A stretch of 64,000 nt of DNA, from contig CAYLYH010000007.1 of the NCBI GenBank assembly GCA_964388155.1, positions 5,679 to 69,678 on the forward strand, read 5' to 3'. This DNA comes from an uncultured bacterium (GTDB lineage Bacteria; Fidelibacterota; Marinisomatia; Marinisomatales; JACNKV01). A model generated the notes under the pieces. The model was not told the origin of the DNA. It did not search any database and saw only the letters and a list, made by a program, of their open reading frames with translations. The translations under genes and the position numbers were made by a program. Positions 11,079 through 57,023 of this stretch are shown in pieces. How positions within the stretch are numbered: position 1 is the first letter of the stretch; every line of letters begins with the position of its first letter.

Positions 11079-11096
11079 GTGAGAATTTGAGTTGCC

Positions 11097-15551: not shown

Positions 15552-15609
15552 TTTTTATCTTTTCTCCCGTACCCACCCCTTTAACACTTTAATACTTTTA
15601 CACCTGAAC

Positions 15610-16104
15610 ATGAAAAACAAACTACACTTACATTCGATGATTGTCCATGTGCCCAGCGCGACTGTTCCGCTTACGGCCGTCACGTACGCTCTTTATTGGT
15701 TCAACGGAAAACCGGTGTACAAAACCGCCGTGATGTTCTTGTTAGCGATTTCTCTGATCACGGTTCTATTTTCGATGGTGACCGGTATTCTCAAACGTCG
15801 AAAAAAACATGCAAACTGGTTTCCTTCGTTCAAACGAAAACTAATCCTCTCCATTTTATTGGTAATTAGTTTGGTCGCAACACTACCATCAATTTTTACT
15901 GCAACGCCATTTCCGGGAATTATTAATTTTACCATTTGGGTTGTTCAGCCTGCTTTAGCTGTTTGGATTATGGTCATTGGTTTAATTTCCAGTCAAGGAC
16001 GGTTCGGCGGGCGATTATCTTATGAAAACGACAAAGAGAACCAGGCAGACTATGACATTCTTTTTCAAACCATACAAACATTAAATGAGGTAGATGAAAC
16101 ATGA
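15610..16104 (+). CDS. DUF2231-like integral membrane protein
   Basis: Four predicted transmembrane spans, an N-terminal LHSMIVHVPSA motif (compare the DUF2231 pattern HP-x-hVHhP) and a C-terminal GRFGGRLSY. The ATG at 15610 is preferred over the track start at 15529. The stop overlaps the ACAD start (ATGA). Confidence 0.6.
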   Translation: MKNKLHLHSMIVHVPSATVPLTAVTYALYWFNGKPVYKTAVMFLLAISLITVLFSMVTGILKRRKKHANWFPSFKRKLILSILLVISLVATLPSIFTATPFPGIINFTIWVVQPALAVWIMVIGLISSQGRFGGRLSYENDKENQADYDILFQTIQTLNEVDET

Positions 16105-37773: not shown

Positions 37774-37798
37774 AACGCCCCCCGCATTTTATCGACTC

Positions 37799-40700: not shown

Positions 40701-40999
40701 TCTCCGACAGCCTCGGGGACAACCTCAAGTTTACCGTTATAATTCTGAATTTCTCCTGTAACCGTCACAAGGTCACCCGGGAGTAATCCGGCGTCAAACT
40801 GGTTTGTGTAAATAATGATGGCAGCTGTTTCATCCTGAATGGTAAAATCACTTTCACCAGAACTACCCAGGTTGGGTGTGGTTACTATTCCGCTGGTGGT
40901 TACCGTATTCCCAAGCTCCAACCTTGCTTCCGCAACGGTCAGAGTTTGCGCCAGAGAAACCGACACACCAACCATCAATATGATGAGCATTTTCTTCAT
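37799..40999 (-). CDS. large T9SS cargo protein with four OB-fold-like repeat modules and a C-terminal sorting domain
   Basis: The ATG at 40999 is preceded by AAGGAGA, and a signal peptide (MKKMLIILMVGVSVSLAQ) follows. The repeated core is G.VTTP...f.iQD..ggI......gD.v.VtG.i..YnGK.Ei.P. The C-terminus YHNYPNPFNPETQIRFSL...GAYFYRIKAG...MMLIR is a classic Por secretion tail. Confidence 0.8.
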   Translation of the reverse strand: MKKMLIILMVGVSVSLAQTLTVAEARLELGNTVTTSGIVTTPNLGSSGESDFTIQDETAAIIIYTNQFDAGLLPGDLVTVTGEIQNYNGKLEVVPEAVGDVIVESQGNDLPEFQSMTLSGLLTAPESLESELVQVFNVEIISGDWPDSGNNANVTISDDGGITALTLRVDRHSDVDDGPAPVGFFHLKGTVGQYDYSEPQDEGYQIIPRYQTDIETPDENMVSIYDARNAAEGTVVSTQGFITTPVWGSNRIDYGLQDATGGIALFKYGETMDLQIGDFIVVTGVIENYNGKAEIVPADVADITIISQGNLLPAAQEVTIAEFLANPESYESEILRIMTATIFDGTWPNSGSDANLTITDISDTTVTMRVDKDTDVDEGMEPQGTFELTGISGQYDSSDPYDSGYQILPRFYSDIVVLGDITPVITNVVYAPENPTPDDIVTITAEIVDDGSLTASLVYTVDDGDLIPVEMTSDDGMTFTGDIPAQTDAALVTFYIQADDGVNDTVFSENYIYVVHAPESLTAIYDIQYTDDPSGDSPLVGQIVTVGGIVTAEFWGGSDNRNFYVQDDEAPYCGIVVFEYGGWDNFELHNALGDVVTSLAEGDSVVVIGEVVEYYGKTEITNVTDVVVYGPAGGVIHPLDVAPDQIMSDGTGAEAYEGVLVKLTDVTVDEADLGYGEWSVSDGSNSVRVDDNWDYYYWPEAGQALAEVVGVLDYGYSNTKIQPRLARDVKEDGAVRIQYIQQVLYSDLLKTATDSESDMSYFAGDTVTIVGIVTMPTGLSYAGDGVKFIFADSHGGPWSGILSYDPDSSAFPVLFEGDLILATGFISEYATAGSNMTELFITEPVDLVDMGLNMPAEPVVATGDLRWPTEAEQWGTVMVKIKDGIVTNNDLLYEVFAVDDGSGAALIDDDSDSVEVYFEAVGPPPVDTQVDSIRGWVYHHFGSYADSTAYKLCPLYASDIVYTQVSIDDNGATPNEFALYHNYPNPFNPETQIRFSLRTDSPVRLVIYDVLGRQVRTLVNNEFTSGTHILTWDGKNDKHQMVGSGAYFYRIKAGNFVDYKKMMLIR

Positions 41000-41084
41000 A
41001 CCTATCTCCTTCTTAGTTATGTCTTTCATCAAACAATCCATCTCCCGTACGAATGATCTTTTGTCGGATTGTTATTGTCAGACA

Positions 41085-43235
41085 CTATTTAATGATCAGA
41101 AATTTACCCTCCTTAACTTTTCCATAGGATAAGCTTTCATGATCCAAATTTTCTACGGTAAATAAATACAGCCCGGAAGCCGTCGCCTGATCGTATCGTG
41201 TGATCATATCCCACGCATGCTCTCCTCCGCTGAACTGTGGATATTTGTTCTCGTCAATGTTTTTGACATCCCCCCCCGCATAGGTTATATCATGATGTAA
41301 AATATCTACCAAATCACCTGCTAAGGTAAAAATTCTTATTTCTGCTTTTTGGGGGAGATGATTGAACCAAATGATTTTTTCACGGCTGCTATATCCGTCC
41401 CACAGTGCTTGTCCCCGATAAGGGTTTGGATAGACGGACGGTGAATCTGTCCATGCTCCTGTTTGAGGTTTTACCCCGGGGTAAACAAATTGCCGGTTAG
41501 CATAAAGCGAACTTTCTAAGCTCAATAGATTTGCCTCCGGATCGCCGCGGTCAAACGCTGTAACTGCATAATAATTCAACCAGCCATTTTTCACGCCATC
41601 ATTAACAAAACGGTAATGATAATATTCTCCATCAATTTCGATACTGTCCGGCTCACCATAGATATTCGCAATGCGCACCGGACTAAATCCTGAGTTATAT
41701 CCTACATTTCCTGATTCACCGTCCACTTTGTCAAATTCTCCAAGCAGTGAGAATTCAATATCAGTATCTGTGGAGGTTTTCCGCGCGCCGTATATTCGAT
41801 AGCCTTCAAAATCTTTCTCTCTGCTAATTGGATCTATAAAGGATTCTGCATTATTCTGCCAATAAATTGCGACAGATTTGTCGCTGACATCAATGGCAAC
41901 ATTCGGGACAGGTGGAGGCTCAGGTAAAATATATCGGTCAATGATTCCATTTTCATTCAGGTCTTCGTTGATGTCTAATATATTATTTCGGTTTTTATCC
42001 TCTCCGTCATACGCTTTTTGTGCCCAATCTGCATTCACATAAAGATTGGTACGGCGTTCGGGAGAATCCTCAGTAGAGCCATCCCATCGCGCCGCAACCA
42101 CTGCCATCACAATATTACAGGAGGAATCCGGAGGAAGCTGCCAATCCGCGGAATCTGCGGAGGTCGGCTCGCTGCCAAAGGGACCGGCAGACACTAAAAA
42201 CAACCAGCTGTTGGTATTGTTTGGATATCCGTCTGAATTATACAACTCAGGGTCTGTGCCGAGCGGAACATCCGATGTCATTTTTTCGTATCGTTCCGCG
42301 TCTGTCAATGGCATATTGTATGCAGGGTAATCTGCGTTATTTGAATTTGTCCACACCCATTGATTGTAATGCGTTTGAAGATAGGATTTCGGGACGGTAC
42401 TTCCCAACATTGTTATCCCGATATAAGATTCCGCCCAACCATCATCACCATCTGCATCGTATTGATATGCAATATCTCTCGTAAATCCGGATTCATCAAC
42501 CGAACGATCAAACCCATCAAGATTGTCATACCATGAAAATCCGCCTCCCGGTGTGTATGTATCTGTATAATTCATGTTTGCAACGGAAGCATCTGTCCAT
42601 ATTCCGGCGTAGAGATTATTAATCATTTCATTTGAACGATTGGTAATTGTGTAGTTTAAAACCACAAAGGCATCTGCAAATGAAAAATTCCAAGCATACG
42701 ACTCCAATTGGATATCAATACCTAATGGCGTGTGTTCGGTGATATTGTTATTATCACCCGGAGTTAAGCCATAATCCCGAAAATGAGTTAGAAAGTCCTG
42801 ATGAGAAACAGCATAAGGAGAAAAATATTGCGCCATCGAATCTTGTGACGTCGATGAGATGGATGATCGTATCTGAAGGTCTGATTCGGCAAACAATTCA
42901 AATCCTTCATCGCCGGAATCAAATACACCATCCACAATGGCGGTAGATACGCGCCGTTCCTCGTTGACAACACCACCAATCCAAAGTCCTGCAAATGAAA
43001 AATGTTCTACTTGCTCCCGCTGAATTTCTGTGTGTTGTTTATATTGACAGGAGGGTAGGATTTTTCCGTTGATTTTATTCCATCCGTTTCCAAGTATCCC
43101 AAAATTTGTTACCGTCAGCCCCAATTGACCAACGGATGTATATTGATCAAAAATATCCTCCGCATATTGGGCATGCAATGCCAGGGGAAGACAAACGGAT
43201 AGCACTAATTGAAGTATGAGAATCTGATTCTTCAT
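41085..43235 (-). CDS. hypothetical secreted protein with FN3-like module and T9SS-type C-terminal domain
   Basis: The ATG at 43235 opens MKNQILILQLVLSVCLPLALHAQ. A Ca-binding-like DKNRNNILDINEDLNENGIID loop is present. AIDVSDKSVAIYWQ...FEGYRIYG looks like FN3. The C-terminus is VYPNPYRG...IRIFTLAGDLV...SGLYLFTV...GKFLIIK. Confidence 0.65.
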   Translation of the reverse strand: MKNQILILQLVLSVCLPLALHAQYAEDIFDQYTSVGQLGLTVTNFGILGNGWNKINGKILPSCQYKQHTEIQREQVEHFSFAGLWIGGVVNEERRVSTAIVDGVFDSGDEGFELFAESDLQIRSSISSTSQDSMAQYFSPYAVSHQDFLTHFRDYGLTPGDNNNITEHTPLGIDIQLESYAWNFSFADAFVVLNYTITNRSNEMINNLYAGIWTDASVANMNYTDTYTPGGGFSWYDNLDGFDRSVDESGFTRDIAYQYDADGDDGWAESYIGITMLGSTVPKSYLQTHYNQWVWTNSNNADYPAYNMPLTDAERYEKMTSDVPLGTDPELYNSDGYPNNTNSWLFLVSAGPFGSEPTSADSADWQLPPDSSCNIVMAVVAARWDGSTEDSPERRTNLYVNADWAQKAYDGEDKNRNNILDINEDLNENGIIDRYILPEPPPVPNVAIDVSDKSVAIYWQNNAESFIDPISREKDFEGYRIYGARKTSTDTDIEFSLLGEFDKVDGESGNVGYNSGFSPVRIANIYGEPDSIEIDGEYYHYRFVNDGVKNGWLNYYAVTAFDRGDPEANLLSLESSLYANRQFVYPGVKPQTGAWTDSPSVYPNPYRGQALWDGYSSREKIIWFNHLPQKAEIRIFTLAGDLVDILHHDITYAGGDVKNIDENKYPQFSGGEHAWDMITRYDQATASGLYLFTVENLDHESLSYGKVKEGKFLIIK

Positions 43236-43565
43236 TGATGAAGCAATGCAAACTATATCCCAGCAGAATTCTAATAAAATACTGGGGGACAAATTACAGC
43301 TTTGGAGTACGGGAGTCAATCAATACCGACACAAATCCTCATTAGTTTGGGCAATGATAAACCGCCTGTTTAAAGGTAGCGGACAGGGAATATTAGAACC
43401 TGTAATTTATCCGGAAGACATTACTGTTAAGGAAATAATTTTCAGGGTGAATAAGTATAATAAAAATAGTGTTAATCGCTATTTTTCTAATATGCACAGT
43501 GGTTAATTGTTCTTATTTTCTATCGTGTTTTTCTTCTCTTATCCACACAATAAACAAGGACATTT

Positions 43566-44753
43566 ATGGGACATCTTCTCGATTCAAATCACACATTAGT
43601 TCCGCTCATCGATCGGCTGAATAAATATCCGATCGGCGTGGTAGACAGTGAAATCCTCAGAGAATTATTATCACTGCTGTTTTCAGAGGAAGAAGCCTTC
43701 GTTGCTTCAAAATTCCCCTTAACAGAAGCCACACTAAAAGAACTCTCCATAGCAACAAAGATGGAGGAGGGAGACCTCTTGCCGGTGTTAGAATCCATGG
43801 CGGATAAAGGGATTATCATGGATTTACCCTATAACGGAGGAGTGTTTTATTTGCTCATGCCCGGGACTATCGGGTTTTTTGAATTCACGTTTATGAAAAA
43901 CCGCACGGACCTTCCGCTTGAAAAAGTGGCAAAACTGATGGATGAGTATTTTACCGACAGAGAAAAAGGGCACGGTCAGGAATTTTTCGGGAGCAAAACA
44001 CCTCTGACACGCTCACTCCCCTACCAGGAACATATTCCGGTAACCAGTGTCATTACAGATTATGAAAGTGCCCGCAACATTATTAAAAATGCAAAGTTTG
44101 GTGCGGTAAGTATGTGTTATTGCCGCCATCAAAAAGAGCATACCGGCGGTACCTGTAAAAAAGGGGCGCCAGTGGAAGGAATTTGTATCTCCCTGGGGAC
44201 AGGAGCAACCTTTTTAGCCCGGCGAGGATTTGCAGAAGAAAAAACTAAAGATGAACTTTTGAAGATCATTGAAAAAGCTCACCAATTAAATCTGACGCAT
44301 ATCACGGATAATGTTCGCAATAAACCGACGTTTATCTGCAATTGCTGCGGGTGCTGCTGCCATATTATGGAAGGAATCCAAGCCGGGTATATCAACGGTG
44401 TGGGGAAAACCAACTATCTGGCAACGATTAATCCCGAATTGTGCGACTATTGCGGAGAATGTTTTACCGCATGCAATCCTCATGCAATCGGTTTGGATAA
44501 ATCCAAAGATTATAAAAACAGAGCCGACAGAAAGAGTCGGGTAAATACGGACATATGTTTAGGATGCGGAGCCTGTATTTCATCCTGTAAACACGGAGCG
44601 ATCTCCCTGATCCCGCGCGAAAACCCACCAAAATTAATTGAAAGAAAACGGGATTTGTTTAAAACCATCCTCCGCGAAAAAGGGCGATTAAACCCGTTTA
44701 TCATTGAGGGAATAAAGAAAAAAGTTAAACGAACGTTTCGAATACAGGGATAA
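43566..44753 (+). CDS. 4Fe-4S dicluster protein with additional Cys-dense motif
   Basis: It has two ferredoxin motifs (CDYCGECFTACNPHAI; CLGCGACISSCKHGAI), plus CYCRHQKEHTGGTC and CNCCGCCCH. The N-terminal 130 aa are unassigned. Confidence 0.75.
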   Translation: MGHLLDSNHTLVPLIDRLNKYPIGVVDSEILRELLSLLFSEEEAFVASKFPLTEATLKELSIATKMEEGDLLPVLESMADKGIIMDLPYNGGVFYLLMPGTIGFFEFTFMKNRTDLPLEKVAKLMDEYFTDREKGHGQEFFGSKTPLTRSLPYQEHIPVTSVITDYESARNIIKNAKFGAVSMCYCRHQKEHTGGTCKKGAPVEGICISLGTGATFLARRGFAEEKTKDELLKIIEKAHQLNLTHITDNVRNKPTFICNCCGCCCHIMEGIQAGYINGVGKTNYLATINPELCDYCGECFTACNPHAIGLDKSKDYKNRADRKSRVNTDICLGCGACISSCKHGAISLIPRENPPKLIERKRDLFKTILREKGRLNPFIIEGIKKKVKRTFRIQG

Positions 44754-44949
44754 AACAATAGGCTAAGTTCCCTGATATACAACACATGGTTGGATGTGCG
44801 GTAATTAATCTTCATTCACTCTACGCTTCTCTATGAATGATAAATTCATTACGATTGACAAGGTGGTGAGTGGTTTTTACCGTCATGCTCTGATCACCAT
44901 ATTTCCTTTTTCCTAAGAGAATGATTGGTCAAAAAAACAAACCACTATA

Positions 44950-45039
44950 TCATCCCGAAGCTTACAGTCCCGGGCACGTCTTCAGATTCCGCCTTAGGGT
45001 AACACGAAGTGTCGTGAGAAGAATGACTGAGGGATCTAC
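44950..45039 (-). repeat. R1 repeat, third copy (reverse orientation)
   Basis: The reverse complement reads GTAGATCCCTCAGTCATTCTTCTCACGACACTTCGTG...CCCGGGACTGTAAGCTTCGGGATGA, with a 28-nt internal insertion related to the one in the 18627-18737 copy. Confidence 0.8.
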
Positions 45040-45098
45040 GTAATTAAACCTGATACAATTGAATAAAACACAAAACTTAACTCTGCATACAAAAAATG

Positions 45099-45125
45099 TA
45101 GATTCTTCACTCCGTTCAGAATGAC
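45099..45125 (-). repeat. R2 repeat copy (reverse orientation)
   Basis: TAGATTCTTCACTCCGTTCAGAATGAC is the reverse complement of GTCATTCTGAACGGAGTGAAGAATCTA. Confidence 0.75.
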
Positions 45126-45318
45126 AGTGTTTTTTTTGATCATTATAAAACCCTAAAGGGAGCAGACGGACCCGCCGCTATGCTCTCGGCAGGCGGATCG
45201 AAATGACAGCGACAGGTGAATAGTAGAATTGGTTGATTAGATACACAATGCTGTGATGAACCTTAAATAAGAATATTTATAATTAAGGGATACACTGCAT
45301 AACTTAATTATATATTAT

Positions 45319-45368
45319 TATATTTAAGATACATATTGCTTTACTTAAATATAAAATGTTATATTTAA
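45319..45368 (+). promoter_or_regulatory. operator-like triple TATATTTAA motif directly upstream of the Fic gene
   Basis: TATATTTAAG (45319-45328) has an exact inverse, CTTAAATATA (45344-45353). A third direct copy, TATATTTAA (45360-45368), ends 3 nt before the GTG start. Confidence 0.4.
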
Positions 45369-45371
45369 AGT

Positions 45372-46502
45372 GTGGATACATTTAAATCAGGCACATTTCA
45401 AAGGCAGGGTGGCTACAAATCTTTTTCCCCGGAAAAGATCAATAAGCAATGGATTATATCTAATCCTGAAATACAAGATCTATTGGGACAAGCAAACAGG
45501 GAATTAGGGCGGTTGGATATGTTCAGTGAATATGTCCCTGACATTGATTTGTTTATCTATTTACACACCGTAAAAGAGGCCACGCAATCATCAAAGATTG
45601 AAGGGACACAAACGCGTGCCGAAGACTTGTTTGTAGATGATGTCAATCAAACTCCTGAAAAGCGTTTGGATAAAATCGAAGTTTTAAATTATATAACAGC
45701 ATTAAATGATGGAATTGAAAAACTTTCGCAACTTCCACTATCAACGCGTTTAATTAAAAAATTGCATTTTACACTCATGCAGGGGGTTAGGGGAAAGGAT
45801 AAAACACCGGGCGAGTATCGAAGGAGTCAAAATTGGATAGGAGGTGCCACCTTAAAAGATGCCGGTTTTATACCGCCACACCATTTGGACGTGAATCCGC
45901 TAATAGGAGATTTGGAAAAGTTTATCCATAACATTGAAATCCATGTACCCCATTTAATTAAAATAGCTATTGTCCACTACCAATTCGAAACTATCCATCC
46001 ATTTTTGGATGGCAACGGGAGGGTGGGGCGATTAATGATACCATTATATCTTGCAGAAAATAAATTACTCAAAAAGCCCGTTTTATATTTATCAGATTAT
46101 TTAGAAAAACATCGTCAACTTTATTATGACCATTTAATGAACACACGTCTAAAATCGGACTTAACCCCGTGGTTGAAGTTTTTTTTAGTTGGTATCATTG
46201 AAACGGCTAAAAATAGTATTAAAACTTTCGATGCCATATTAAAACTGCAAAACACATTAGATAAAAAGATCGCTGCTTTTGGCAGAAGAAGTATTCATGT
46301 TAAAAAATTAATTGAACGCTTGTATGAAAACCCGGTTATAAACAGCACCGCCACCGTTAAATTATTACAAGTATCAAATCCCACAGGCATAAAACTATTG
46401 GCGGATTTAGAAAAAGCAGGAATTCTTGTGGAAATCACCGGGCAAGCACGAAATCGCTCCTATTTGTTTGAAGAATATATGAGATGTTTTTTCAATGAAT
46501 AA
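45372..46502 (+). CDS. Fic family protein (class II, N-terminal inhibitory helix, C-terminal wHTH-like domain)
   Basis: The Fic motif HPFLDGNGRVGRL and the inhibitory motif SSKIEG ([ST]xxxE[GN]) upstream of the core are both present. The start codon is GTG. Confidence 0.92.
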   Translation: MDTFKSGTFQRQGGYKSFSPEKINKQWIISNPEIQDLLGQANRELGRLDMFSEYVPDIDLFIYLHTVKEATQSSKIEGTQTRAEDLFVDDVNQTPEKRLDKIEVLNYITALNDGIEKLSQLPLSTRLIKKLHFTLMQGVRGKDKTPGEYRRSQNWIGGATLKDAGFIPPHHLDVNPLIGDLEKFIHNIEIHVPHLIKIAIVHYQFETIHPFLDGNGRVGRLMIPLYLAENKLLKKPVLYLSDYLEKHRQLYYDHLMNTRLKSDLTPWLKFFLVGIIETAKNSIKTFDAILKLQNTLDKKIAAFGRRSIHVKKLIERLYENPVINSTATVKLLQVSNPTGIKLLADLEKAGILVEITGQARNRSYLFEEYMRCFFNE

Positions 46503-46699
46503 GCCAACGCACCCTTTCCCCAACCACTGGCAGGAAACCCTACTCCCTTCTCCAATCCGGGGGGTTCAATGAGACCTAACTGGAAAAAACCGCTTTATGC
46601 TATAAATTCATAAACAACATAAAATAAATTGTCATAAATTCCGACAGTTTAAGACCGTGATTTAAACCGACTTGCAGCGGTCAAAAAGAACAAGCTAAG

Positions 46700-46733
46700 C
46701 CGGGGACAGAAGAGTCCTGCCGGGCTCTTTTTT
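46700..46733 (+). terminator. intrinsic terminator candidate downstream of fic
   Basis: CCGGGGAC-agaaga-GTCC-tg-CCGG is followed by GCTC and TTTTTT. Confidence 0.5.
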
Positions 46734-46858
46734 GATTCCGGGCTATTTGAAAAAAACAGCATCAAGAACACCCATAAATATGGGTTGCCAACCGAGTCCT
46801 TTGAGGATCACGGTGGTTATTCCGATAAACGGAAGATGTGCGGTCAGCCGAAAAATAC

Positions 46859-46883
46859 AAACCTGCTTTTCGGCGGGTTTTTT
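46859..46883 (+). terminator. intrinsic terminator candidate (orphan)
   Basis: AAACCTGC-ttttcg-GCGGGTTT is followed by a T-run. No ORF I would call lies between this terminator and the previous one. Confidence 0.5.
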
Positions 46884-46935
46884 ATTTTTATGACCTCTTG
46901 ATGTGATCGAAACCCAACATGAAAGGAAACAGATC

Positions 46936-47241
46936 ATGAATAAAGAGACAAAAACAGCAGCCCTTCACCTAAAATATCCGCTGCTCATACACTGCAATGA
47001 ATGCGGGGAATATAAAGGCGTCATTCATTCCCGGGAGATCGAACCGGAAAAACACCGGCGCTTCTCTGATAAGAACAACCCGATCATTATCACATGCCTC
47101 TGTGAAGGCCTTAGCTGTGAGCACTGCAGAAAACTCAGCCACAAACCCATCAGCAACTACTATGATGAAGCAAAAGACAGAACGATTCATGTGCCGTATT
47201 TTGCCGGAATGGCGTGCAGACAGTGCGGTAAAAACCAGTAA
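46936..47241 (+). CDS. Cys-rich small protein (putative zinc-binding), unknown family
   Basis: Starting at the ATG at 46936, it contains CNECGEYKG, CLCEGLSCEHCRK and CRQCGK (ten Cys in about 100 aa). Confidence 0.5.
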   Translation: MNKETKTAALHLKYPLLIHCNECGEYKGVIHSREIEPEKHRRFSDKNNPIIITCLCEGLSCEHCRKLSHKPISNYYDEAKDRTIHVPYFAGMACRQCGKNQ

Positions 47242-47335
47242 ACAAGCGACACAGAACATAAAATAAGGAGATAGCGGGGGTGTTATTGTTGGCTGTTAGT
47301 GCCCTCCCCGCTGTTTAGAATGTATTATTCAGATT

Positions 47336-49300
47336 TTATTTTAGAGGTGTAATTCCGCAATCAAGTAAATACTTATATACTCCATCGTAATATTCTGAAA
47401 ATCTTGTTAGATCATTATTGTCTCCCAAAGGTACCCAAATTACCATTCCTTCTCTTGCCCTTGTCAAAATTACTCTGTATTTATTTTTAATAAATTGTTT
47501 TTTTGATTCTTTGTGTATTTTTTGCCATTTTGTTCCTACAAACCGATGGTAGAACCAATTTCCATTAATATTTCTAAAATCAGCTCCCCAGCAAACAAGT
47601 GACCAATCTATTTCTAATCCCTGAATTCCAAATTCAGTAATAGGAAGCTCCAAGAATGAAGATGACCTTATATCATTATTTGAATTTAGAAACCACGCTG
47701 AAACATCAATTTTCAATGTTACATCTAACCCTTCTGGCCTTAGTCTTCTTGCTCCTGAGCTAGCAACAAGACCACATCTTCTCAAACCGCGAGTTTGCGA
47801 TGTGATATGTTCTTTTGATTTTTTTAGTGAACGCGAAACATAAATTGGAAAGTCCTGTAAGTAATTATTATAAAGGTCTTTAGCTATATGTATGTCATTC
47901 TCTAAAATTGTATCAACCCAGTTTGAAACTTTTTCAGCTCTATACGATCGAATATCAATATCTAAATGTAGCTCTGGTATATTGTTGATTTCTATAGATT
48001 TTGGTGCTTCCTTTGTGAATAATTTATATTTACCAACATCAATCATGTTGGGTGATATAAAAATATTCCAGTGTGAAAAGTTTTCAGTTAAAGCCCTACC
48101 CCACTCGGACAACCCGGCTTCACCATCGTTAATTTCTTGCCCATTTCCAATTAACCCAACAAGGACTGCCCAATCATGTCTGTCTAATATTTTTAGTATT
48201 AATTCTGGTTCGGAGACATCTCTTTGGAATTTTCTGTATGACTGTTTTCTATCCCAAGCTCTTTGCGCTTCATCAAAAATGATGATTTTATCTGGCGGGC
48301 AATCTTCATTGCCATAATAAACATCAATGAACAAATGAATATTTTGAATAAATGTTTTTACTTTCCTTCTGGATTCTGCGAGTGTTGTGTCGTTATTTTC
48401 TTTGTAATCTCTAGCTAATGCTTCTTGTAATACGGTTACTAAAGGACCGTTTCCTGACAAAAATACTCCCAACTCGTTTTGATGAATCCCCTTGTTATGT
48501 ACAATGTTTAGACCACACAGTGTTTTACCTGAACCAGGAATGCCTGTAATAAAACAAACTATTTTCTTTTTGTGTTTTTGTGCTTCCTCTACCGCTTTCA
48601 ATACTGCGTCTGTTGTTTTGGTTAAGTTTTTAATTCCGGCATGAGAGCGGGATATTTCTTTTACGTTTTGTCCGGCATAAAGCACTTGGGCGGCTTCAAT
48701 TATTGTCGGAGTTGGGTTATAAAGTGAATCGTTCCATTCAATATAATTAATCTGTTCGCTTGTTTTGTAGATTGTTATTGAGTTTATAATGATTGAAATG
48801 ACATTATTGGGATTTGCTATCTGAACCTTGTTAACATGGCCCTGATAATTCCAATCGTTGTTTGGTGAAATATTCTCATTATCAAGCGTGAAAATGATTG
48901 GTACAATAAATTTATTTATTGATCCTAGGTGAAAATCTCTGATGTCTAAAGCATAATCTTCTACTTGATCAATATCTTGTTTCGTAGGCCTATAATAACG
49001 TTGTTTGTACTCTATAAGAAAAATGACTCCGCCATAAATCAACACTACATCAACTCTTTTGCCCCGACGAGGAATCGTAAATTCTAAAATTACACCAGCT
49101 TTAAGAAATTTGATTTCATGTTTAGAATATTCAGAAAACACATTTTTTAATACGATGATTTCTTCCTGCCAAACCCTTGTTTGTAGTTGAAGTTGTTGAT
49201 AAAACCCTGCTTTTTGCGCTCCAATTGTTAACAAACCCACAATTTTTTCTGTTGAATCGTTTATAAAATTTTCAACAGAATTTTTATAAAAGCTAGGCAT
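47336..49300 (-). CDS. PD-(D/E)xK nuclease-like N-terminal domain fused to DUF2075/SF1-helicase-like P-loop ATPase
   Basis: The N-terminus GKRVDVVLIYGGVIFLIEYK gives D84...E97-x-K99. Walker A is ITGIPGSGKT (aa 251-260), Walker B is IIIFDEAQRAW (about aa 340-349), and the C-terminal VILTRAREGMVIWVP resembles helicase motif VI. Confidence 0.8.
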   Translation of the reverse strand: MPSFYKNSVENFINDSTEKIVGLLTIGAQKAGFYQQLQLQTRVWQEEIIVLKNVFSEYSKHEIKFLKAGVILEFTIPRRGKRVDVVLIYGGVIFLIEYKQRYYRPTKQDIDQVEDYALDIRDFHLGSINKFIVPIIFTLDNENISPNNDWNYQGHVNKVQIANPNNVISIIINSITIYKTSEQINYIEWNDSLYNPTPTIIEAAQVLYAGQNVKEISRSHAGIKNLTKTTDAVLKAVEEAQKHKKKIVCFITGIPGSGKTLCGLNIVHNKGIHQNELGVFLSGNGPLVTVLQEALARDYKENNDTTLAESRRKVKTFIQNIHLFIDVYYGNEDCPPDKIIIFDEAQRAWDRKQSYRKFQRDVSEPELILKILDRHDWAVLVGLIGNGQEINDGEAGLSEWGRALTENFSHWNIFISPNMIDVGKYKLFTKEAPKSIEINNIPELHLDIDIRSYRAEKVSNWVDTILENDIHIAKDLYNNYLQDFPIYVSRSLKKSKEHITSQTRGLRRCGLVASSGARRLRPEGLDVTLKIDVSAWFLNSNNDIRSSSFLELPITEFGIQGLEIDWSLVCWGADFRNINGNWFYHRFVGTKWQKIHKESKKQFIKNKYRVILTRAREGMVIWVPLGDNNDLTRFSEYYDGVYKYLLDCGITPLK

Positions 49301-49317
49301 CCACTTACCTTACAGCT

Positions 49318-49512
49318 TTATAATAAGAAGAAATCAGAAAGAGGAATCTCTAGTGCCTTAACTATTTTTTCAAGAGTGTCAATAGTAGGTGATTTTTCAT
49401 CTCTTTCTAGTGCACCAATATATGTTCTATGAAGATTACATCTCTCAGCAAGTTGTTCTTGAGATAATTTTTTGTTTTTCCTTAATGTCCGGATGTTCTT
49501 GCCAATCTTCAT
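49318..49512 (-). CDS. XRE-family helix-turn-helix transcriptional regulator (64 aa)
   Basis: IRTLRKNKKLSQEQLAERCNLHRTYIGALERDEKSPTIDTLEKIVKAL is a canonical HTH_XRE. It lies 17 nt upstream of the DUF2075 gene on the same strand. Confidence 0.9.
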   Translation of the reverse strand: MKIGKNIRTLRKNKKLSQEQLAERCNLHRTYIGALERDEKSPTIDTLEKIVKALEIPLSDFFLL

Positions 49513-49652
49513 AATATGATGACTAAAAATAGCATAGTTCTATAAACCAAACTACAGCCTAAAGATAGCATTATCCCAGTTTTATGTGTTCTTAATAAAC
49601 TTTACAATTTACTCTGATTTTTTCTCTGTGAGCTCTGTGGCAAATAAAAAAA

Positions 49653-50849
49653 CTAATCTGCGTTTCGTATTTTTTTATTCAGCAGTCCGATCACACCGCA
49701 AAGCGCTGCACCGATACCTATCCAGAAAAAGACAATTCTCACATCGACGGAATTTGCGATAATCCCGACCAAAGCGGATGAAAGGGCGGTCATCCCCACC
49801 ACGGCGATATGCACCATTGAGAACAGCCGTCCGTGCACGGCATTCGGAGTGTGCCGCTGAATGATGGCTGTCCGTGACACCGTGATCATCGGTATCCCGA
49901 TGGCATGAATAGTGATAAAAACCATTACAAACAGTACTGAATCAGCCAGATAAAAGATCGAATACGTTACGCCGTCCAGGATCATCCCGATCAGCAGCAA
50001 CCGTCCCGGGTTGATCTTTCCGCACAAACGATAGACAAAGAACGACCCTATCAGCATTCCCAGCGCCAGACAGGCTTCCACAAAAGCAAAGTCGGAAGCG
50101 GACCCGCTCAGCACCTCTTTAACCAGGATGGGCGTTCCGACAATAGCCGGCCCCATGATAAATAGATTGTTGATTACGGTCAGTCCGATAAAATAACCGA
50201 TAAATGGATGTTCCACCAGATACCGAATTCCTTCTGTCAGATCTTTTACGGAGCTGTGGTCGGTCGGTTTTGGTTTTTGCTCCGGATGCCGAACCAGTAG
50301 CAACAGAACCGTGGCTAAGACAAAAGAAAGCCCATCAAGAATAAAAAGTGCTTTCAGGGAGATAAATCCCAGCAAAATTCCGGCTAATGCGGGACCGATT
50401 AACCAAGCGAACTGCTGGGATGTTGCCATCACGGAATTGATACGCACCAGTGAATCACGGTTGGTGATCGTCGGAATAAAGGCGTTCAACGCTGGCGGGA
50501 AGAGCGTACCGAAAGCCGCTCGGACGAACGCCAGTATCCCGATCATTAGGGTAGCTTCATGCCCAAGGTAAAGCATAATCGGAATAATAATGACCGTAAA
50601 CGCCTGCGCCAGATTTGAGAAGATCATCAGTCCGATACGGTGAAGCCGATCGGAGAGGACACCGGCATAGAGGCTGAACAGCATCGCCGGCAGATAGGTG
50701 CCCATGGCGACCAGCCCCGTCACTGCGGGAGAGCCGGTAATGTCCAGGATCAGCCAGATGAGTGCCAGGTGGTAAATAGCATCCCCGGCGGTGGAAATCA
50801 TCTGCGCGGACCATAGCAGCGGGATATTCTTATCTTTGGACTGAAACAT
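49653..50849 (-). CDS. MFS transporter (EntS/MFS_3-like)
   Basis: 398 aa with 12 transmembrane spans. Contains GVLSDRLHR in loop 2-3. Confidence 0.85.
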   Translation of the reverse strand: MFQSKDKNIPLLWSAQMISTAGDAIYHLALIWLILDITGSPAVTGLVAMGTYLPAMLFSLYAGVLSDRLHRIGLMIFSNLAQAFTVIIIPIMLYLGHEATLMIGILAFVRAAFGTLFPPALNAFIPTITNRDSLVRINSVMATSQQFAWLIGPALAGILLGFISLKALFILDGLSFVLATVLLLLVRHPEQKPKPTDHSSVKDLTEGIRYLVEHPFIGYFIGLTVINNLFIMGPAIVGTPILVKEVLSGSASDFAFVEACLALGMLIGSFFVYRLCGKINPGRLLLIGMILDGVTYSIFYLADSVLFVMVFITIHAIGIPMITVSRTAIIQRHTPNAVHGRLFSMVHIAVVGMTALSSALVGIIANSVDVRIVFFWIGIGAALCGVIGLLNKKIRNAD

Positions 50850-50940
50850 GACCGGTGAAAATACGCAAAATATTTTATTAGAAAAGATAGATGAGTTTTG
50901 AAGTAAATTTTATGAGATTAATTACGGAATCAAACACATT

Positions 50941-51408
50941 ATGACCAAAACAGTTACCGGCGTCATCGATAGTTACGTCTTTAGACGAACAGTTGACGGA
51001 CTTCGCTTTTTAATGCTGAAGCGAGCAAAAACAAAGATGTATGAACACCTTTGGCAGGGCGTTGCCGGTAAGATTGAACCGGGTGAAACTGCTTGGCAAA
51101 CTGCTGTCAGAGAATTAAAAGAAGAAACAGGACTCACGTCCAAACGGATGTTCACTGCCGATTATGTCAGCCGGTTTTATGAAGCGCACAAAGATCGGAT
51201 CAACCTTGTACCGGTTTTCGGGATTGAAGTCGATGATGAAAATATTACATTATCAGAAGAACATTGTGAATTTCGCTGGATTACCGCCGCAGAAGCAGAA
51301 TCTTTACTCGTATGGAGAGGACAAAAAGAGGGCTTACGGACAGTTAATGAAATGGTATTAAAAAACGATGACCGAATGCGGTGGTCAGAAATAAAAACGG
51401 AGGAATAA
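50941..51408 (+). CDS. NUDIX hydrolase
   Basis: The Nudix box GKIEPGETAWQTAVRELKEETGL is present. Confidence 0.88.
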   Translation: MTKTVTGVIDSYVFRRTVDGLRFLMLKRAKTKMYEHLWQGVAGKIEPGETAWQTAVRELKEETGLTSKRMFTADYVSRFYEAHKDRINLVPVFGIEVDDENITLSEEHCEFRWITAAEAESLLVWRGQKEGLRTVNEMVLKNDDRMRWSEIKTEE

Positions 51409-51411
51409 ATT

Positions 51412-51867
51412 ATGTTAGAAATCGGCACACAGGCACCGGCGTTCAGTCTGCCGGATGCAAACGAAAATACGGTATCACTACAAGATTATAAGGGACAAAA
51501 ATTCGTTCTGTGGTTTTTCCCAAAAGCCAGCACCCCCGGATGAACATCCGAAGGAAAGGGATTCCGGGATGAATACCAATCATTTGAGAAAAAGAATATC
51601 GCGATTATCGGGATGAGCGCTGACACGCCAAAACGTCAAAAGAAATTTGCGGAAAAACACGGGTTCCCGTTTCCGCTTCTTTGTGATGAATCCAAAGAAG
51701 TGCTAAAAGCCTACCACGCTTGGGGACCAAAAAAATTCTACGGACGGGAATACGAAGGTATTTATCGAATTACGTATATCATCGATGAAAAGGGTGTGAT
51801 TGAAAAAGCCTATCCGAAAGTGAAAACAAAAACCCACGCCACGGACATTCTCAGCGACTTGGGTTAG
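51412..51867 (+). CDS. bcp: thioredoxin-dependent peroxiredoxin Bcp/PrxQ with in-frame UGA (putative selenocysteine U44) at the peroxidatic position
   Basis: The ATG at 51412 opens MLEIGTQAPAFSLPDANENTVSLQDYKGQKFVLWFFPKASTPG-TGA-TSEGKGFRDEY.... This continues in frame into the track ORF 51613-51867. It aligns by eye to E. coli Bcp (...YFYPKAMTPGCTVQACGLRD...), with the TGA at 51541-51543 exactly on the catalytic Cys. Confidence 0.8.
51545..51571 (+). promoter_or_regulatory. candidate bacterial SECIS hairpin
   Basis: Starting 2 nt after the UGA, CATCC-gaa-GGAA-aggga-TTCC-g-GGATG forms 5-bp and 4-bp stems with a G-rich apical loop. Confidence 0.45.
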
Positions 51868-51919
51868 TCAGTTGGCACCGGCTTTATTACTACAAAACTC
51901 CATTTATCCAATACTCCAA

Positions 51920-52855
51920 TCAAACCATCACCCCTTTTTCTGTGAACGCCGATTCATTCTGTGTTTCATCCAGATATCCCATCATAACAGAATGCCCGGT
52001 AACAGTAAAGGCTTTATCCGTGTTTTCGATTTTCGTCATGTGATTTGGTTCTTCACCAATCGTTAAAACTGCCGTGTTCTCCGGCCGAATGAAAACCGGA
52101 GCGGGATATCCGTCTTTTATTTCACTCCAATCAAAATATAATTCGTAATCAGGATTTGGAAATTGATCCGGTAAGCCGATTTTCATATCAGGATTCTCCG
52201 TCGTCAGAACAGCGCCGGTGTAGAACGGCAGAACAACCTGAAACACCGCCCACGCAGTAGACATCGGCGGCAGATCAATGTGAAACGATTTTGTTTCATT
52301 CAGCCCGGAAGATAAATAAAATCCGTTCGCATTCACCAATAAATTATAATGGCTGAGTTTTATTCCACGTTTCTTGCTCCAAAAGACCATCGCTTCATCC
52401 GGTAGCAAACGGTTAATTTTGTGAACGTATTCCGTTGGGTACTCCAGTAGGCATTCGGGATAATCCCACTCATTGCCATCCAAAATGAAATCTGGTTTAA
52501 CACCGCCAATCGCAGAGGTGATTTTTTCGTCTGTGATGACTAAAGAGGCTCCGACAGACCAAATCCCAAATGACATCAACTCAGCATACGGGAAGTCAAA
52601 TCCATAAATGAGCACCCGATGTTCATGCGTTAGTCCAAGTGATTCCAGCCAGTTCGCGGTTTGATTGACCAAATCTAAGATATGCTTGTTGGTCAAGTCG
52701 ACATCTTTGTACGCAAAATGATTAGCATATTTGACATTCTGCCCGGTAATCAGCCCCCGCAAATTAGGATACGGAACCATATACTCAATCGGCTCAACAT
52801 TCCCATAGCATTGAGCATTGTAGATTAATTTTGAAGTACTTGTGTCGGTTTTCAC
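51920..52855 (-). CDS. ANL (acyl/aryl-CoA synthetase)-superfamily-like protein, truncated and with degenerate P-loop
   Basis: AMVFWSKKRGIKLSHYNLL occupies the position of the ..YTSGTTGxPKGVxxSHxNL motif. FTVTGHSVMMGYLDETQNESAFTEKG corresponds to the GE..vrG..vm.GY....T...f motif. The ORF stops just before the expected GW.hTGD motif, and the C-terminal subdomain is absent. Confidence 0.5.
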   Translation of the reverse strand: MKTDTSTSKLIYNAQCYGNVEPIEYMVPYPNLRGLITGQNVKYANHFAYKDVDLTNKHILDLVNQTANWLESLGLTHEHRVLIYGFDFPYAELMSFGIWSVGASLVITDEKITSAIGGVKPDFILDGNEWDYPECLLEYPTEYVHKINRLLPDEAMVFWSKKRGIKLSHYNLLVNANGFYLSSGLNETKSFHIDLPPMSTAWAVFQVVLPFYTGAVLTTENPDMKIGLPDQFPNPDYELYFDWSEIKDGYPAPVFIRPENTAVLTIGEEPNHMTKIENTDKAFTVTGHSVMMGYLDETQNESAFTEKGVMV

Positions 52856-52876
52856 GAATTTGTCATTCCTGAATTA

Positions 52877-54289
<1,413 letters not shown>

Positions 54290-54398
54290 CTATAAAACAT
54301 CGGCGGACAGGCAGATTTCTCAGATTGCACAGATTGCACAGATATATTTATTGTGATTTCAATTAAGTCCGTGATGTTTGTAATGTTTTCTACAATAA

Positions 54399-55817
54399 TC
54401 AATAATCAATGTTAAAGATTACTACTTTCGGTTCGGTCATTTCTTGCAGGGCAAATTTAATTCCTTCACGCCCAATTCCGCTGTTTTTTACACCGCCAAA
54501 CGGCATTTGGTCCAACCGGTAATCGGTTGAATCGTTTATAATCACACTTCCAACTTCCAACTCATCAATGGCTTTATGTGCCTGGTTTATATCCTTGGTA
54601 AAGATGGCACCGTGCAAGCCGTAGTTCACACTGTTTGCTATTTCAATCGCTTCGTCAAGCGTAGTTATCTTTTTCAATAAAACCACCGGTCCAAATACTT
54701 CTTCGTATGTCAAAATTGCATCGTCAGATACATTCGTCAGCACTGTCGGCTCCAGCCGCGAACCATCTCTGTTTCCGCCGCATTCAAGCGTTGCCCCTAT
54801 ATCTGTGGCGTCTTTTACCCATTTTTCAACACGTTTTGCCTCATCAATGGTAATCATAGGTCCGATATCTGTGGACTCATCAAGCTGCCGGCCAACTTTG
54901 AGGATCTTGGTTTTTTCAACGAATATTTTAGTGAATGTATCGAATACATCACTTTGAATCAAAATCCGTTGCACGCCGATGCAATTTTGTCCGACTGCCC
55001 AAAATGCACCGGACACACAGGATTCAACCGCCCAATTAATATTGGCATCGTCCATCACGATGACCGGCGAATTGCTGCCAAGTTCCATTCCGATTTTTTT
55101 TAGGCCGACTTTGCTCATTACGTTTTCGCCTGCATCGACACCGCCGGTAAAACTCACCATTCTGACACGGGGATCAGTCACAAGAGCATCAGCGTTTTCG
55201 GAGGCATAACCTGTAACCACATTCAAGACATGCGCCGGAAGTCCAGCTTCCATAAAAGCTTCGGCAAGTTTCAGTGCCGAAAGCGGTGTAACAGTTGCCG
55301 GTTTAAGCACAATGCTGTTTCCGCCCGCAATGGCAGGGCCTAATTTATGTGCAACTAAATTCAGCGGATCGTTAAATGGTGTGATTGCACCGATAATCCC
55401 AATTGGAACACGCTTGTAATAGCCGGTTTTGTTTTCTGCCCCTGCGACGGAATCAAACGGGAGTGTTTCCCCTAAAATCCGACGTGATTCTTCCGCAGAC
55501 ACCATTAACGTATTCACGCATCGTGATGCTTCACCGCGTGCCTCTTTGATGGTTTTTGAACCTTCACTCGCAATTGTACGTGCAAATTCCTCTTGATTAT
55601 TTTTGACAATCTCAGCAGTTTTATATAAAATATCCATCCGTTGGTGAACAGGCATCTTCCGGGCAATTTTAGCACCAATTTCGGCACTGTCGATTGCTTT
55701 TTTCATATCGTCCACTGTTCCGCGCGGAACAGTATCTACGACCGTTTGGTCATAAGGGTTTTCTATGTTTATCGTTTCATTTTTGGTGATCCATTCACCG
55801 GCAAGTAACATCTTCAT
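54399..55817 (-). CDS. NAD(P)-dependent aldehyde dehydrogenase
   Basis: 472 aa containing GAITPFNDPLNL, MELGSNSP, the catalytic GQNCIGVQR and EEVFGPV. Confidence 0.92.
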   Translation of the reverse strand: MKMLLAGEWITKNETINIENPYDQTVVDTVPRGTVDDMKKAIDSAEIGAKIARKMPVHQRMDILYKTAEIVKNNQEEFARTIASEGSKTIKEARGEASRCVNTLMVSAEESRRILGETLPFDSVAGAENKTGYYKRVPIGIIGAITPFNDPLNLVAHKLGPAIAGGNSIVLKPATVTPLSALKLAEAFMEAGLPAHVLNVVTGYASENADALVTDPRVRMVSFTGGVDAGENVMSKVGLKKIGMELGSNSPVIVMDDANINWAVESCVSGAFWAVGQNCIGVQRILIQSDVFDTFTKIFVEKTKILKVGRQLDESTDIGPMITIDEAKRVEKWVKDATDIGATLECGGNRDGSRLEPTVLTNVSDDAILTYEEVFGPVVLLKKITTLDEAIEIANSVNYGLHGAIFTKDINQAHKAIDELEVGSVIINDSTDYRLDQMPFGGVKNSGIGREGIKFALQEMTEPKVVIFNIDY

Positions 55818-55826
55818 TATTTCCTC

Positions 55827-57023
55827 CTAACTAACCACAGATTTCACGCTTTTCAATGCTTTTTCAAGGTCTTCGATCAAATCTTCAACATCTTCGCATC
55901 CGACGGAGAGACGAACCAGTCCATTGGTAATACCGGACTTTATTCGGCACTCTTTACTCATTCCAGCATGTGTCATGGAAGCAGGGTGTTGGATAAGGGT
56001 TTCATATCCGCCCAGAGATACCGCCAATGTCGCGACAGTTACATTGTCCATGAGTTTTTTACCGGCACCCAGTCCGCCTTTGACTTCAAAACTCATCATC
56101 GAACCGGAACCGCTCATCTGTTGTTTTGCCAAATCGTGTTGGGGGTGGGATGTTAATCCCGGGTACCGCACCCATTCAATGTTTGGATGGTTCTCTAAAA
56201 ATTTGGCAATTTGAATAGCATTTTGCTGTGCTTTTTCAACACGCAAAGAAATCGTACGCAATCCGCGGAGAACCAGCCATGCCTGATGCGGATCCATGGT
56301 TCCGCCCATTGAAAGCAATACTTTCTTCGTTTTTTGCAGTAAAGTGTTTTCCTTAAAAACTAAAATTCCTCCGACGACATCCGTATGTCCGTTGATGAAT
56401 TTTGTCATACTGTGCATCACAATATCTGCTCCTAATGCCAGCGGATTTTGCAGCATTGGGCTCATAAATGTATTATCCACAGCTAGGGAAATATTGTGTT
56501 CATGTGCAAGGTCGGCACAGGCCTGGATATCGGTAATATTGATGGTCGGGTTCGCCGGGGTTTCGATAAAAATTAACGCAGTCTCAGGGCAGATTGCTCT
56601 CCGGATATTTTCAATCTTGGTTGTATCCACGAAATCATATTTCACGCCAAATCGTGAAAATTCTTTTTCAACAACACCACGTGTCGGACCGTACATCGCA
56701 TCCGTGCCGATAATATGTTTTCCCGAGCCGAGTAGCGCCATAAATAACGTGGAACTTGCCGCCATCCCGGAGGCGGTTGCTAACGCGCCAATTCCGCCTT
56801 CCAATGATGCAACTGCATCTTGCAATGCATCTGTGGTCGGATTTCCGATTCGCGTGTAAATGTAGCCGTCTTCTTTGCCGGAAAACCGTGCACCGCCCTG
56901 ATCCGCGGATTCAAACGCAAATGTGGATGTTTGATAAATAGGCGGGGACACACTGCCAAGGGGGTCTTTTATATGTCCCGCATGGGTGACAACTGTATCA
57001 CGTTTTATATTTTTTAAACTCAT
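55827..57023 (-). CDS. Cys/Met-metabolism PLP enzyme (methionine gamma-lyase / cystathionine gamma-synthase family)
   Basis: Contains YTRIGNPTTDALQDAVASLEGG, DNTFMSP and the PLP-Lys region HSMTKFINGHTDVVGG. Confidence 0.9.
   Translation of the reverse strand: MSLKNIKRDTVVTHAGHIKDPLGSVSPPIYQTSTFAFESADQGGARFSGKEDGYIYTRIGNPTTDALQDAVASLEGGIGALATASGMAASSTLFMALLGSGKHIIGTDAMYGPTRGVVEKEFSRFGVKYDFVDTTKIENIRRAICPETALIFIETPANPTINITDIQACADLAHEHNISLAVDNTFMSPMLQNPLALGADIVMHSMTKFINGHTDVVGGILVFKENTLLQKTKKVLLSMGGTMDPHQAWLVLRGLRTISLRVEKAQQNAIQIAKFLENHPNIEWVRYPGLTSHPQHDLAKQQMSGSGSMMSFEVKGGLGAGKKLMDNVTVATLAVSLGGYETLIQHPASMTHAGMSKECRIKSGITNGLVRLSVGCEDVEDLIEDLEKALKSVKSVVS

Follow-up and report, generated by a model that had tools for sequence, protein, structure and literature searches.

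We analyzed a stretch of 64,000 nucleotides (nt) from an uncultured bacterium (assembly GCA_964388155.1, contig CAYLYH010000007.1, positions 5,679 to 69,678), referred to here as the window, which carries a gene for a 654-amino-acid (654-aa) nuclease-helicase (47336..49300, minus strand) preceded by a 64-aa XRE-type helix-turn-helix (HTH) gene (49318..49512, minus strand). The larger gene, defined by its open reading frame (ORF) and a profile match, most probably encodes a single-polypeptide Nhi-like anti-phage nuclease-helicase, and the upstream controller (C) protein would auto-regulate the operon. We base this reading on homology to a 97%-identical relative of an experimentally verified family member, on intact nuclease and motor motifs, and on the location of the gene in an accessory islet that a close relative lacks.

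The 654-aa protein matches the PADLOC model PDC-S41 (PDLC05014) with an E value of 4.9e-241, residues 2-653 aligning to positions 3-653 of the 657-position profile. The PDC models are 145 untested "phage defence candidates" that were found via guilt-by-embedding in BREX, DISARM, and type I restriction-modification (R-M) loci (bioRxiv 10.1101/2024.01.29.577857); a literature search did not find the name PDC-S41 in the text of any paper. The combination of a nuclease with a DUF2075 domain is known from Nhi of Staphylococcus epidermidis, which has nuclease and helicase activities (10.1101/776245), and from the Nhi-like system (Millman et al. 2022, bioRxiv 10.1101/2022.05.11.491447). The verified Nhi-like protein is SG141 of Bacillus cereus FSL H8-0482 (611 aa; sequence in Table S2 of that study), which was cloned as a single gene, and only this B. 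cereus member is marked "Verified" in the published family list. A tblastn search of plasmids returned 48 records, 44 of them Bacillus megaplasmids, with homologs of ~29% identity on B. cereus-group megaplasmids that cover residues 40-624 of the window protein. One such plasmid protein (WP_071714952.1) also matches PDC-S41 (E value, 7.6e-113), aligns with the window protein over both domains (30% identity over 612 aa; E value, 2e-60), and is 97% identical to SG141 over the 399 aa available. The SG141 sequence also matches the window protein directly (E value, 1e-40; aa 40-405), and the taxa in Table S17 of Millman et al. overlap those of the homologous loci found here, including Algoriphagus, Acinetobacter, Asticcacaulis, and Acidobacteria.

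As judged from these alignments, PDC-S41 and Nhi-like are one family, of which the window gene is a member. The gene is therefore predicted to be an anti-phage defense gene of a known, experimentally verified family and not an unnamed two-gene system. The original prediction, made from the DNA letters, had been unable to assign the pair to any named system and had allowed that it might match one already characterized; the full-length PDC-S41 match and the homology to the verified protein identify that system as Nhi-like. Membership in the true Nhi family was considered and rejected, since the PADLOC Nhi model matches only aa 248-351 (E value, 0.014; 12 bits), which places the window protein in a different family at the sequence level. 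The equivalence of PDC-S41 and Nhi-like is a modestly new point: PADLOC lists PDC-S41 as an untested candidate, yet it is the family of a verified protein, and PDC-S41 matches in genome surveys can be read as Nhi-like.

Members of the family occur sporadically, in many bacterial phyla and in one thaumarchaeote; species-representative genomes contain at least 597 loci. The archaeal member, in the single-cell genome of the Marine Group I thaumarchaeote SCGC AAA799-D11 (locus L016, 9992-11956), is a full-length homolog with 45% identity, which indicates inter-domain transfer of the family. A phage origin was also considered and set aside: a single unverified phage-bin match was found among 50,697 records, and the family is nearly absent from phage genomes. 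To compare gene neighborhoods, PADLOC was run on concatenated neighbor sets from 40 loci, the four nearest genes being set against a control located 7-10 kb away. The nearest genes included Upx, PD-Lambda-1, AbiU, AbiEi, DruB, MkoC, a DRT reverse transcriptase, MTase_II, Vsr, and several PDCs, and the control set held fewer kinds, namely GajA, ShosA/PsyrA, and PbeC. The summary output, which gives no per-protein counts, amounts to ~14 distinct named systems beside the Nhi-like gene versus ~6 at 7-10 kb and is suggestive of an enrichment of the family in defense neighborhoods.

Domain architecture and predicted mode of action

The Pfam family PF09848 (SLFN-g3_helicase, formerly DUF2075) spans aa 247-624 of the 654-aa protein with an E value of 1.5e-70. 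Residues 1-246 gave no Pfam match above threshold, the weak sub-threshold match being to HSDR_N_2 at aa 74-117; no NCBIfam model matched the protein, and searches of PDB sequences with the protein and with a 20-sequence profile returned only P-loop noise. Conservation was assessed in an alignment of 65 full-length homologs of ~50% identity, and structures were predicted with AlphaFold2. The full-length model has a predicted local distance difference test score (pLDDT) of 88.8 and a predicted template modeling score (pTM) of 0.87. Because the helicase dominated the Foldseek matches of the full-length model, the nuclease domain was modeled separately (residues 1-245; pLDDT, 84).

The isolated N-terminal model matched solely PD-(D/E)xK nucleases, with probabilities up to 0.98, its neighbors being Cdn1, McrC, VC1899, Can2/Card1, Bax1, Hjc, AF1548, and type II restriction endonucleases. 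The nuclease core so defined from AlphaFold2, Foldseek, and the weak HSDR_N_2 match (aa 38-138; 48887..49189, minus strand) has an alpha-beta-beta-beta-alpha-beta order, with helices at residues 38-61 and 107-123 and strands at 69-76, 81-89, 92-99, and 131-138. In the model, E73 lies on strand 1, D84 on strand 2, E97-x-K99 on strand 3, and Q112 on the following helix. All five of these residues are invariant in the alignment, as are R78, R79, D115, Y116, D119, D122, and F123. The catalytic motif D84...E97-x-K99 (49004..49051, minus strand) is held by the peptide RVDVVLIYGGVIFLIEYK, encoded at 49004-49057.

In the C-terminal domain, a DUF2075/Schlafen group-3-type superfamily 1B (SF1B) helicase by PF09848 and Foldseek (aa 246-624; 47429..48565, minus strand), three motifs on the same strand have invariant columns: Walker A, GIPGSGKT (aa 253-260; 48521..48544), with G253, G256, G258, K259, and T260; Walker B or motif II, DEAQ (aa 343-346; 48263..48274, within FDEAQ at 48263-48277), with D343, E344, A345, and Q346; and an SF1 motif VI-like TRAREG (aa 613-618; 47447..47464), with T613, R614, R616, and G618. 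The motor is predicted to be an SF1B-type helicase because the full-length model matches RecD, SLFN11/SLFN14, and Upf1. By these motifs the N-terminal domain is a putative PD-(D/E)xK nuclease with an intact active site, and the set of SF1B helicase motifs is complete. The two ORFs with their coordinates and strand, and the peptides RVDVVLIYGGVIFLIEYK, GIPGSGKT, IIIFDEAQ, and VILTRAREG, are present in the sequence as originally described. The proposed fusion of a nuclease with a DUF2075/Schlafen-type helicase is likewise upheld by Pfam, the invariant motifs, and the AlphaFold2/Foldseek comparisons, including the conservation of D84, E97, and K99.

Between the two domains lies a conserved linker (aa 189-229; 48614..48736, minus strand) of the form W..Y.PTPTIIEAAQ.LYAG..V.EISRSHAG..NLT.T, in which W189, Y194, P196-T199, A204, L207, I216, N225, L226, and T229 are invariant. 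The linker is among the most conserved stretches of the family, yet its pLDDT is 50-78 and no known domain resembles it; roles as a sensor, a DNA-contact element, or a regulatory element are possible.

In the mechanism that we propose, the SF1B motor would load onto invading phage DNA and translocate along it at the expense of ATP, and the N-terminal nuclease would cut that DNA so that phage DNA fails to accumulate, as reported for Nhi. Self would be told from non-self by a feature of the phage DNA, by analogy with the two studied proteins, and not by a partner methyltransferase. One candidate feature is phage-specific methylation, as for the B. cereus Nhi-like protein, and another is replication intermediates, as for S. 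epidermidis Nhi. Discrimination may rest on phage DNA methylation because escape from the B. cereus Nhi-like protein has been traced to the loss of function of a DNA methylase encoded by the phage (10.1101/2022.08.27.505566).

The escape data also lend themselves to an explanation in which the protein is a modification-dependent, type IV-like restriction enzyme that cuts modified phage DNA after ATP-driven translocation, the C protein tuning its level. Agreeing with this are the presence of McrC, the nuclease of the modification-dependent McrBC, among the top structural neighbors, the weak similarity to HSDR_N_2, and the lack of a methyltransferase: no DNA methyltransferase Pfam family recurs among the 122 neighbors of the 12 XRE-linked loci described below, and ORF and Pfam examination found no methyltransferase ORF in the islet. 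However, Pfam detected no modification-reading domain (SRA, PUA, YTH, or DUF3427) in the protein, the specificity of the B. cereus protein may not transfer at 30% identity, and Nhi of S. epidermidis, built on the same plan, reportedly targets replication intermediates (10.1101/776245). We consider a type IV-like enzyme unlikely as a description of the window protein; such a mode is plausible as a refinement of the discrimination step and not as an alternative to the Nhi-like reading.

A controller-type regulator upstream of the nuclease-helicase gene

The 64-aa gene lies 17 nt upstream of the nuclease-helicase gene on the same strand, the spacer agctgtaaggtaagtgg (49301..49317, minus strand) containing the AAGG noted originally. 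No promoter-like or terminator-like site was found in this gap by a promoter/terminator scan, so the two genes are likely co-transcribed. The scan for sigma-70 promoters and intrinsic terminators as such gave fewer matches than shuffled sequences and is uninformative, and the organism probably uses Bacteroidota-type promoters. A hairpin 3′ of the stop codon of the 654-aa gene (47270-47310) folds no better than shuffles (z score, -1.1).

Nearly all of the small protein is HTH (Pfam HTH_3; E value, 8e-18; residues 7-61). It matches the PADLOC Control_protein models (E value, 1e-17), and its best matches in the whole PDB are C.BclI (E value, 1.3e-11), followed by C.Esp1396I and C.AhdI. Recognition helices of the C.PvuII group read HRTY or DR(T/S)Y, and the corresponding C-boxes follow the pattern GACT-N3-AGTC-N4-GACT-N3-AGTC with a TGTA spacer for HRTY proteins or CGTG for DR(T/S)Y proteins (Mruk et al. 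2007, PMC2175313). The window protein bears the signature H28-R29-T30-Y31 (49420..49431, minus strand) and so falls in the HRTY subset of the C.PvuII family as defined there. It is by homology a C.PvuII/C.BclI-type R-M controller protein, in keeping with the "C-protein-like" label that the PDB matches, the Control_protein models, and the HRTY helix now bear out.

Upstream of the small gene, the two ATAGCAT copies reported in the original prediction are present at the positions given there (49529-49535 and 49565-49571) and prove to be part of a longer, 13-nt direct repeat (minus strand, ATGCTATyTTTAG) with one mismatch between the copies. The proximal copy, ATGCTATTTTTAG (49523..49535, minus strand), ends 11 nt before the ATG and overlaps the likely promoter, and the distal copy, ATGCTATCTTTAG (49559..49571, minus strand), lies 36 nt upstream of it. 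A repeat of this length was reached by 9/500 first-order Markov shuffles of the 140-nt upstream region, which is mildly above chance, and the two copies are plausible as operators and the only candidates for that role. No canonical C-box was found upstream of the pair, the best match of 9/16 being reached by 437/1000 shuffles. The C gene would be co-transcribed with the nuclease-helicase gene, and its product would bind the repeats in its own promoter. Auto-regulation of this kind would keep the amount of a potentially self-damaging enzyme low and buffered, also in the period right after horizontal transfer.

To estimate how often regulators accompany the family, 80 related loci from reference genomes were surveyed. 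In 12 of them (~15%), the Nhi-like gene is immediately preceded on its own strand by a small HTH gene, with gaps of -43 to +21 nt, and the other 68 (~85%) have no small HTH partner. An obligate two-gene system is thereby ruled out. The two-gene module envisaged at the outset does not hold as an obligate unit, the verified B. cereus gene having also been cloned alone, and the regulator is an optional add-on of the Nhi-like family. The neighbors of the XRE-linked loci are mostly housekeeping genes.

The 12 linked regulators are of several kinds. DRTY-type proteins occur at six Bacteroidota loci. At one (L005), the C-box CACT-CAT-AGTC-CGTT-GACT-CAT-AGTC scores 15/16 at about -48 from the start codon; at another (L039), a box at the same position scores 13/16, and in both cases the score was reached by 0/1000 shuffles. 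Weaker versions with the same CGTT spacer are found at L011, L047, and L048. Two further loci (L027 and L053) encode HRTY-type proteins, as in the window, and share the upstream sequence ATACTTATTGTATGT. L010/L040 and L043/L061 represent two more HTH subtypes; the other upstream HTH types (L010, L040, L043, L061, and L071) include a longer "SIDRAG" type and a Firmicute "SGVSPSTVYSIL" type, and L071 has two tandem HTH genes upstream of the Nhi-like gene. The presence of several HTH types in the same upstream position suggests that regulators have been recruited to Nhi-like genes repeatedly and independently.

Controller circuits of the C.PvuII type have so far been viewed as timers that give a methyltransferase a head start over its restriction enzyme. 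Since C proteins of at least two subtypes (HRTY and DRTY), and HTH proteins of two other types, are encoded upstream of Nhi-like genes, with near-canonical C-boxes at some loci, we tentatively suggest, as a possibility that falls somewhat short of even likelihood, that such circuits have been recruited to govern the methyltransferase-less Nhi-like proteins and that the window copy uses a diverged direct-repeat operator. If this is true, C proteins would be general dosage or establishment governors for self-damaging defense nucleases beyond R-M. The recurrence of R-M-type controllers, sometimes with canonical C-boxes, in front of a methyltransferase-less nuclease-helicase is modestly new, and this subset of the family offers a clue to how bacteria limit the harm that stand-alone nuclease-helicases do to their host.

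An alternative is that the pair acts in abortive infection or as a type II toxin-antitoxin module, with the large protein as the toxin and the XRE protein as the antitoxin. XRE-type HTH proteins are the antitoxins of many such pairs, NCBIfam gives the small protein weak, sub-threshold similarity to the antitoxins HipB, PezA, and Y4mF, and the two genes are tightly coupled on a mobile islet. The HTH nevertheless takes up residues 7-61 of 64, which leaves no toxin-neutralizing domain, and the closest solved relatives are R-M controllers, not antitoxins. The large protein is moreover tolerated without an antitoxin, as judged from the 68 partnerless loci and the B. cereus gene that was cloned alone. 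A toxin-antitoxin pair is thus very improbable, and a C protein acting on the expression of a stand-alone Nhi-like enzyme remains the preferred interpretation.

The accessory islet and its other contents

The gene pair resides in a 4.9-kb accessory islet (44728..49646) that also holds a SoFic-like Fic gene and an ORF preceded by S-adenosylmethionine (SAM) riboswitches. The islet was delimited by comparison with a metagenomic contig of a close relative (L084), in which positions 2467-11162 align with window positions 36001-44727 at 94% identity and positions 11353-17570 align with 49647-55855 at 89% identity. Only ~190 nt separate the two aligned blocks in L084, where a 4Fe-4S gene is followed directly by a major facilitator superfamily transporter gene. 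Because the relative has this empty site, the segment 44728-49646 is an indel, or accessory islet. Its guanine-plus-cytosine (GC) content falls to 0.33-0.37 over 44.5-49.5 kb versus 0.43-0.49 in the flanks, which together with the empty site confirms the AT-rich island that was originally noted. The same islet was found on at least 24 contigs from several metagenomes. No tRNA was found near it, no direct repeats flank it, and none of its ORFs encodes an integrase or transposase; genes with Por_Secre_tail domains, which belong to the type IX secretion system (T9SS), lie nearby and point to a host of the Fibrobacteres-Chlorobi-Bacteroidetes (FCB) group or one that is Bacteroidota-like.

These observations leave little room for the proposal that the protein has a housekeeping function, as a helicase-nuclease of DNA repair or recombination (RecD/Dna2/AddAB-like) with an ordinary local HTH regulator, which we find scarcely credible: RecD and Upf1 are indeed among the structural neighbors of the motor and housekeeping genes prevail around the XRE-linked loci, but the gene is absent from a relative with flanks that are 89-94% identical, has a GC content 10 points below that of the genome, is sporadic across phyla, adjoins a SoFic-like gene, and is part of a family in which anti-phage activity has been verified for one protein.

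The neighboring Fic-type gene mentioned in the original prediction is confirmed by Pfam Fic_N and Fic matches (45372..46502, plus strand) and is a second, single-gene defense candidate. Its product matches PADLOC SoFic with an E value of 6e-117 over residues 5-358 of 361, and scores 171 bits against the NCBIfam SoFic equivalog, below the 550-bit cut-off. The locus is a clean natural example of a two-system islet (SoFic-like and Nhi-like) for which a close relative provides the empty site. AT-rich nested inverted or palindromic repeats (45256-45368) immediately precede the Fic start, and ~40 nt resembling them (L084, 11232-11272) are the only part of the islet kept at the empty site; the stretch may mark a past deletion or a place where recombination occurs. 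On one metagenomic contig (L167, 6401-8303; JGI 3300009105, Ga0117905_1000823), the islet is otherwise identical and the Nhi-like gene is called as pieces of 449 aa and 108 aa, which reflects either misassembly or the presence in the population of an allele that is frameshifted or inactivated.

Also within the islet, two classes of SAM aptamer stand in tandem on the plus strand (46644-46715 and 46754-46866) upstream of an ORF at 46936-47241 (plus strand). The same tandem occurs at a second locus, L170 (1329-1402 and 1437-1550), and a GC stem with a U-run, resembling a terminator, comes after each aptamer. The SAM-I/IV aptamer exceeds the Rfam gathering threshold (46.3 and 49.5 bits versus 41.1), and the SAM-II-like (SAM_alpha) aptamer just upstream of it falls short of its own (29.9 and 27.3 bits versus 36). 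The ORF that they lead encodes an orphan 101-aa, Cys-rich, zinc-ribbon-like protein with only four homolog clusters in 5.8 billion proteins. The riboswitch-ORF unit is conserved in an unrelated gene context (L170-L173), where the leader is ~90% and the protein 71% identical. One speculative possibility is an OFF-type SAM switch, through which the ORF would be induced by a drop in SAM, e.g., under the action of a phage SAM lyase. In L170, the paralogous riboswitch locus, the small Cys-rich ORF is followed by three unannotated ORFs (171, 171, and 219 aa), and the divergent neighbor (3-1070, minus strand) matches Pfam PF05183, a cellular-type RNA-dependent RNA polymerase (E value, 1.2e-7; 31.3 bits versus a cut-off of 23.8).

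Outside the islet, a peroxiredoxin gene (AhpC-TSA/Redoxin, Bcp-like) appears to be split into ORFs of 43 aa (51412-51543) and 84 aa (51613-51867) on the plus strand. The split recurs in the same two calls on the independent contigs L164 and L165 and is therefore probably a genuine frameshift or pseudogene, not an assembly error.

Strength of the assignment and relation to known systems

The defense role that was originally proposed for the gene is supported by its membership in the Nhi-like family and by its accessory location. Several observations weigh against the assignment or parts of it. The identity to the verified Nhi-like member is only ~30%, and specificity and trigger could differ. 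For the nuclease domain on its own, Foldseek gave marginal E values (2e-3 to 0.1), though the matches are uniformly to PD-(D/E)xK folds. In the neighborhood comparison, the distal control also holds defense genes such as Gabija and ShosTA, and the output is a summary without per-protein counts. As to the regulator, the upstream region has no canonical C-box, and the significance of the 13-nt repeat is only modest (9/500); its copies are in direct orientation, whereas inverted repeats are the usual binding sites of HTH dimers. Taken with these points, a single-polypeptide Nhi-like defense enzyme under a C protein is still the interpretation that we hold to be quite probable.

Among known systems, the group III Schlafen proteins (human SLFN11/SLFN14) resemble the window protein in the C-terminal motor, which belongs to the same Pfam family, PF09848, and SLFN11/14 are among its top structural matches. 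They differ at the N terminus, where Schlafen proteins have an AlbA_2 tRNA/rRNA ribonuclease core and the window protein has a putative PD-(D/E)xK domain of the DNase type.

The R-M controllers C.PvuII, C.BclI, C.AhdI, and C.Esp1396I are likened to the 64-aa protein by its best PDB matches and HRTY helix, by the position of the C gene directly upstream of and co-oriented with a nuclease gene, and by the GACT-N3-AGTC-N4-GACT-N3-AGTC C-boxes at loci related to the window. In contrast to R-M systems, the window has no methyltransferase partner, the predicted target gene encodes a nuclease-helicase and not a type II restriction endonuclease, and the promoter has a 13-nt direct repeat in place of the canonical C-box.

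Nhi itself (SERP2475 of S. epidermidis; Bari et al. 2022, 10.1101/776245) has no meaningful sequence similarity to the window protein outside the P-loop region, but it is likewise a stand-alone defense protein with an N-terminal PD-(D/E)xK domain and a C-terminal DUF2075 SF1 helicase, and its presumed logic is also alike.

The verified member of the window protein's own family is the B. cereus Nhi-like protein SG141. It is shorter (611 aa versus 654 aa) and ~30% identical, the cloned construct was not reported to have an upstream C-type regulator, and its host is a Firmicute, whereas the window comes from a T9SS-bearing, marine or sediment bacterium that is probably of the FCB group. Despite these differences, the two proteins are homologous over the nuclease and the helicase and are captured by one PADLOC model, they share Walker A/B, the TR(A/G)R motif, and the ExK/D residues of the nuclease, and both would constitute a single-polypeptide system that operates without a methyltransferase.

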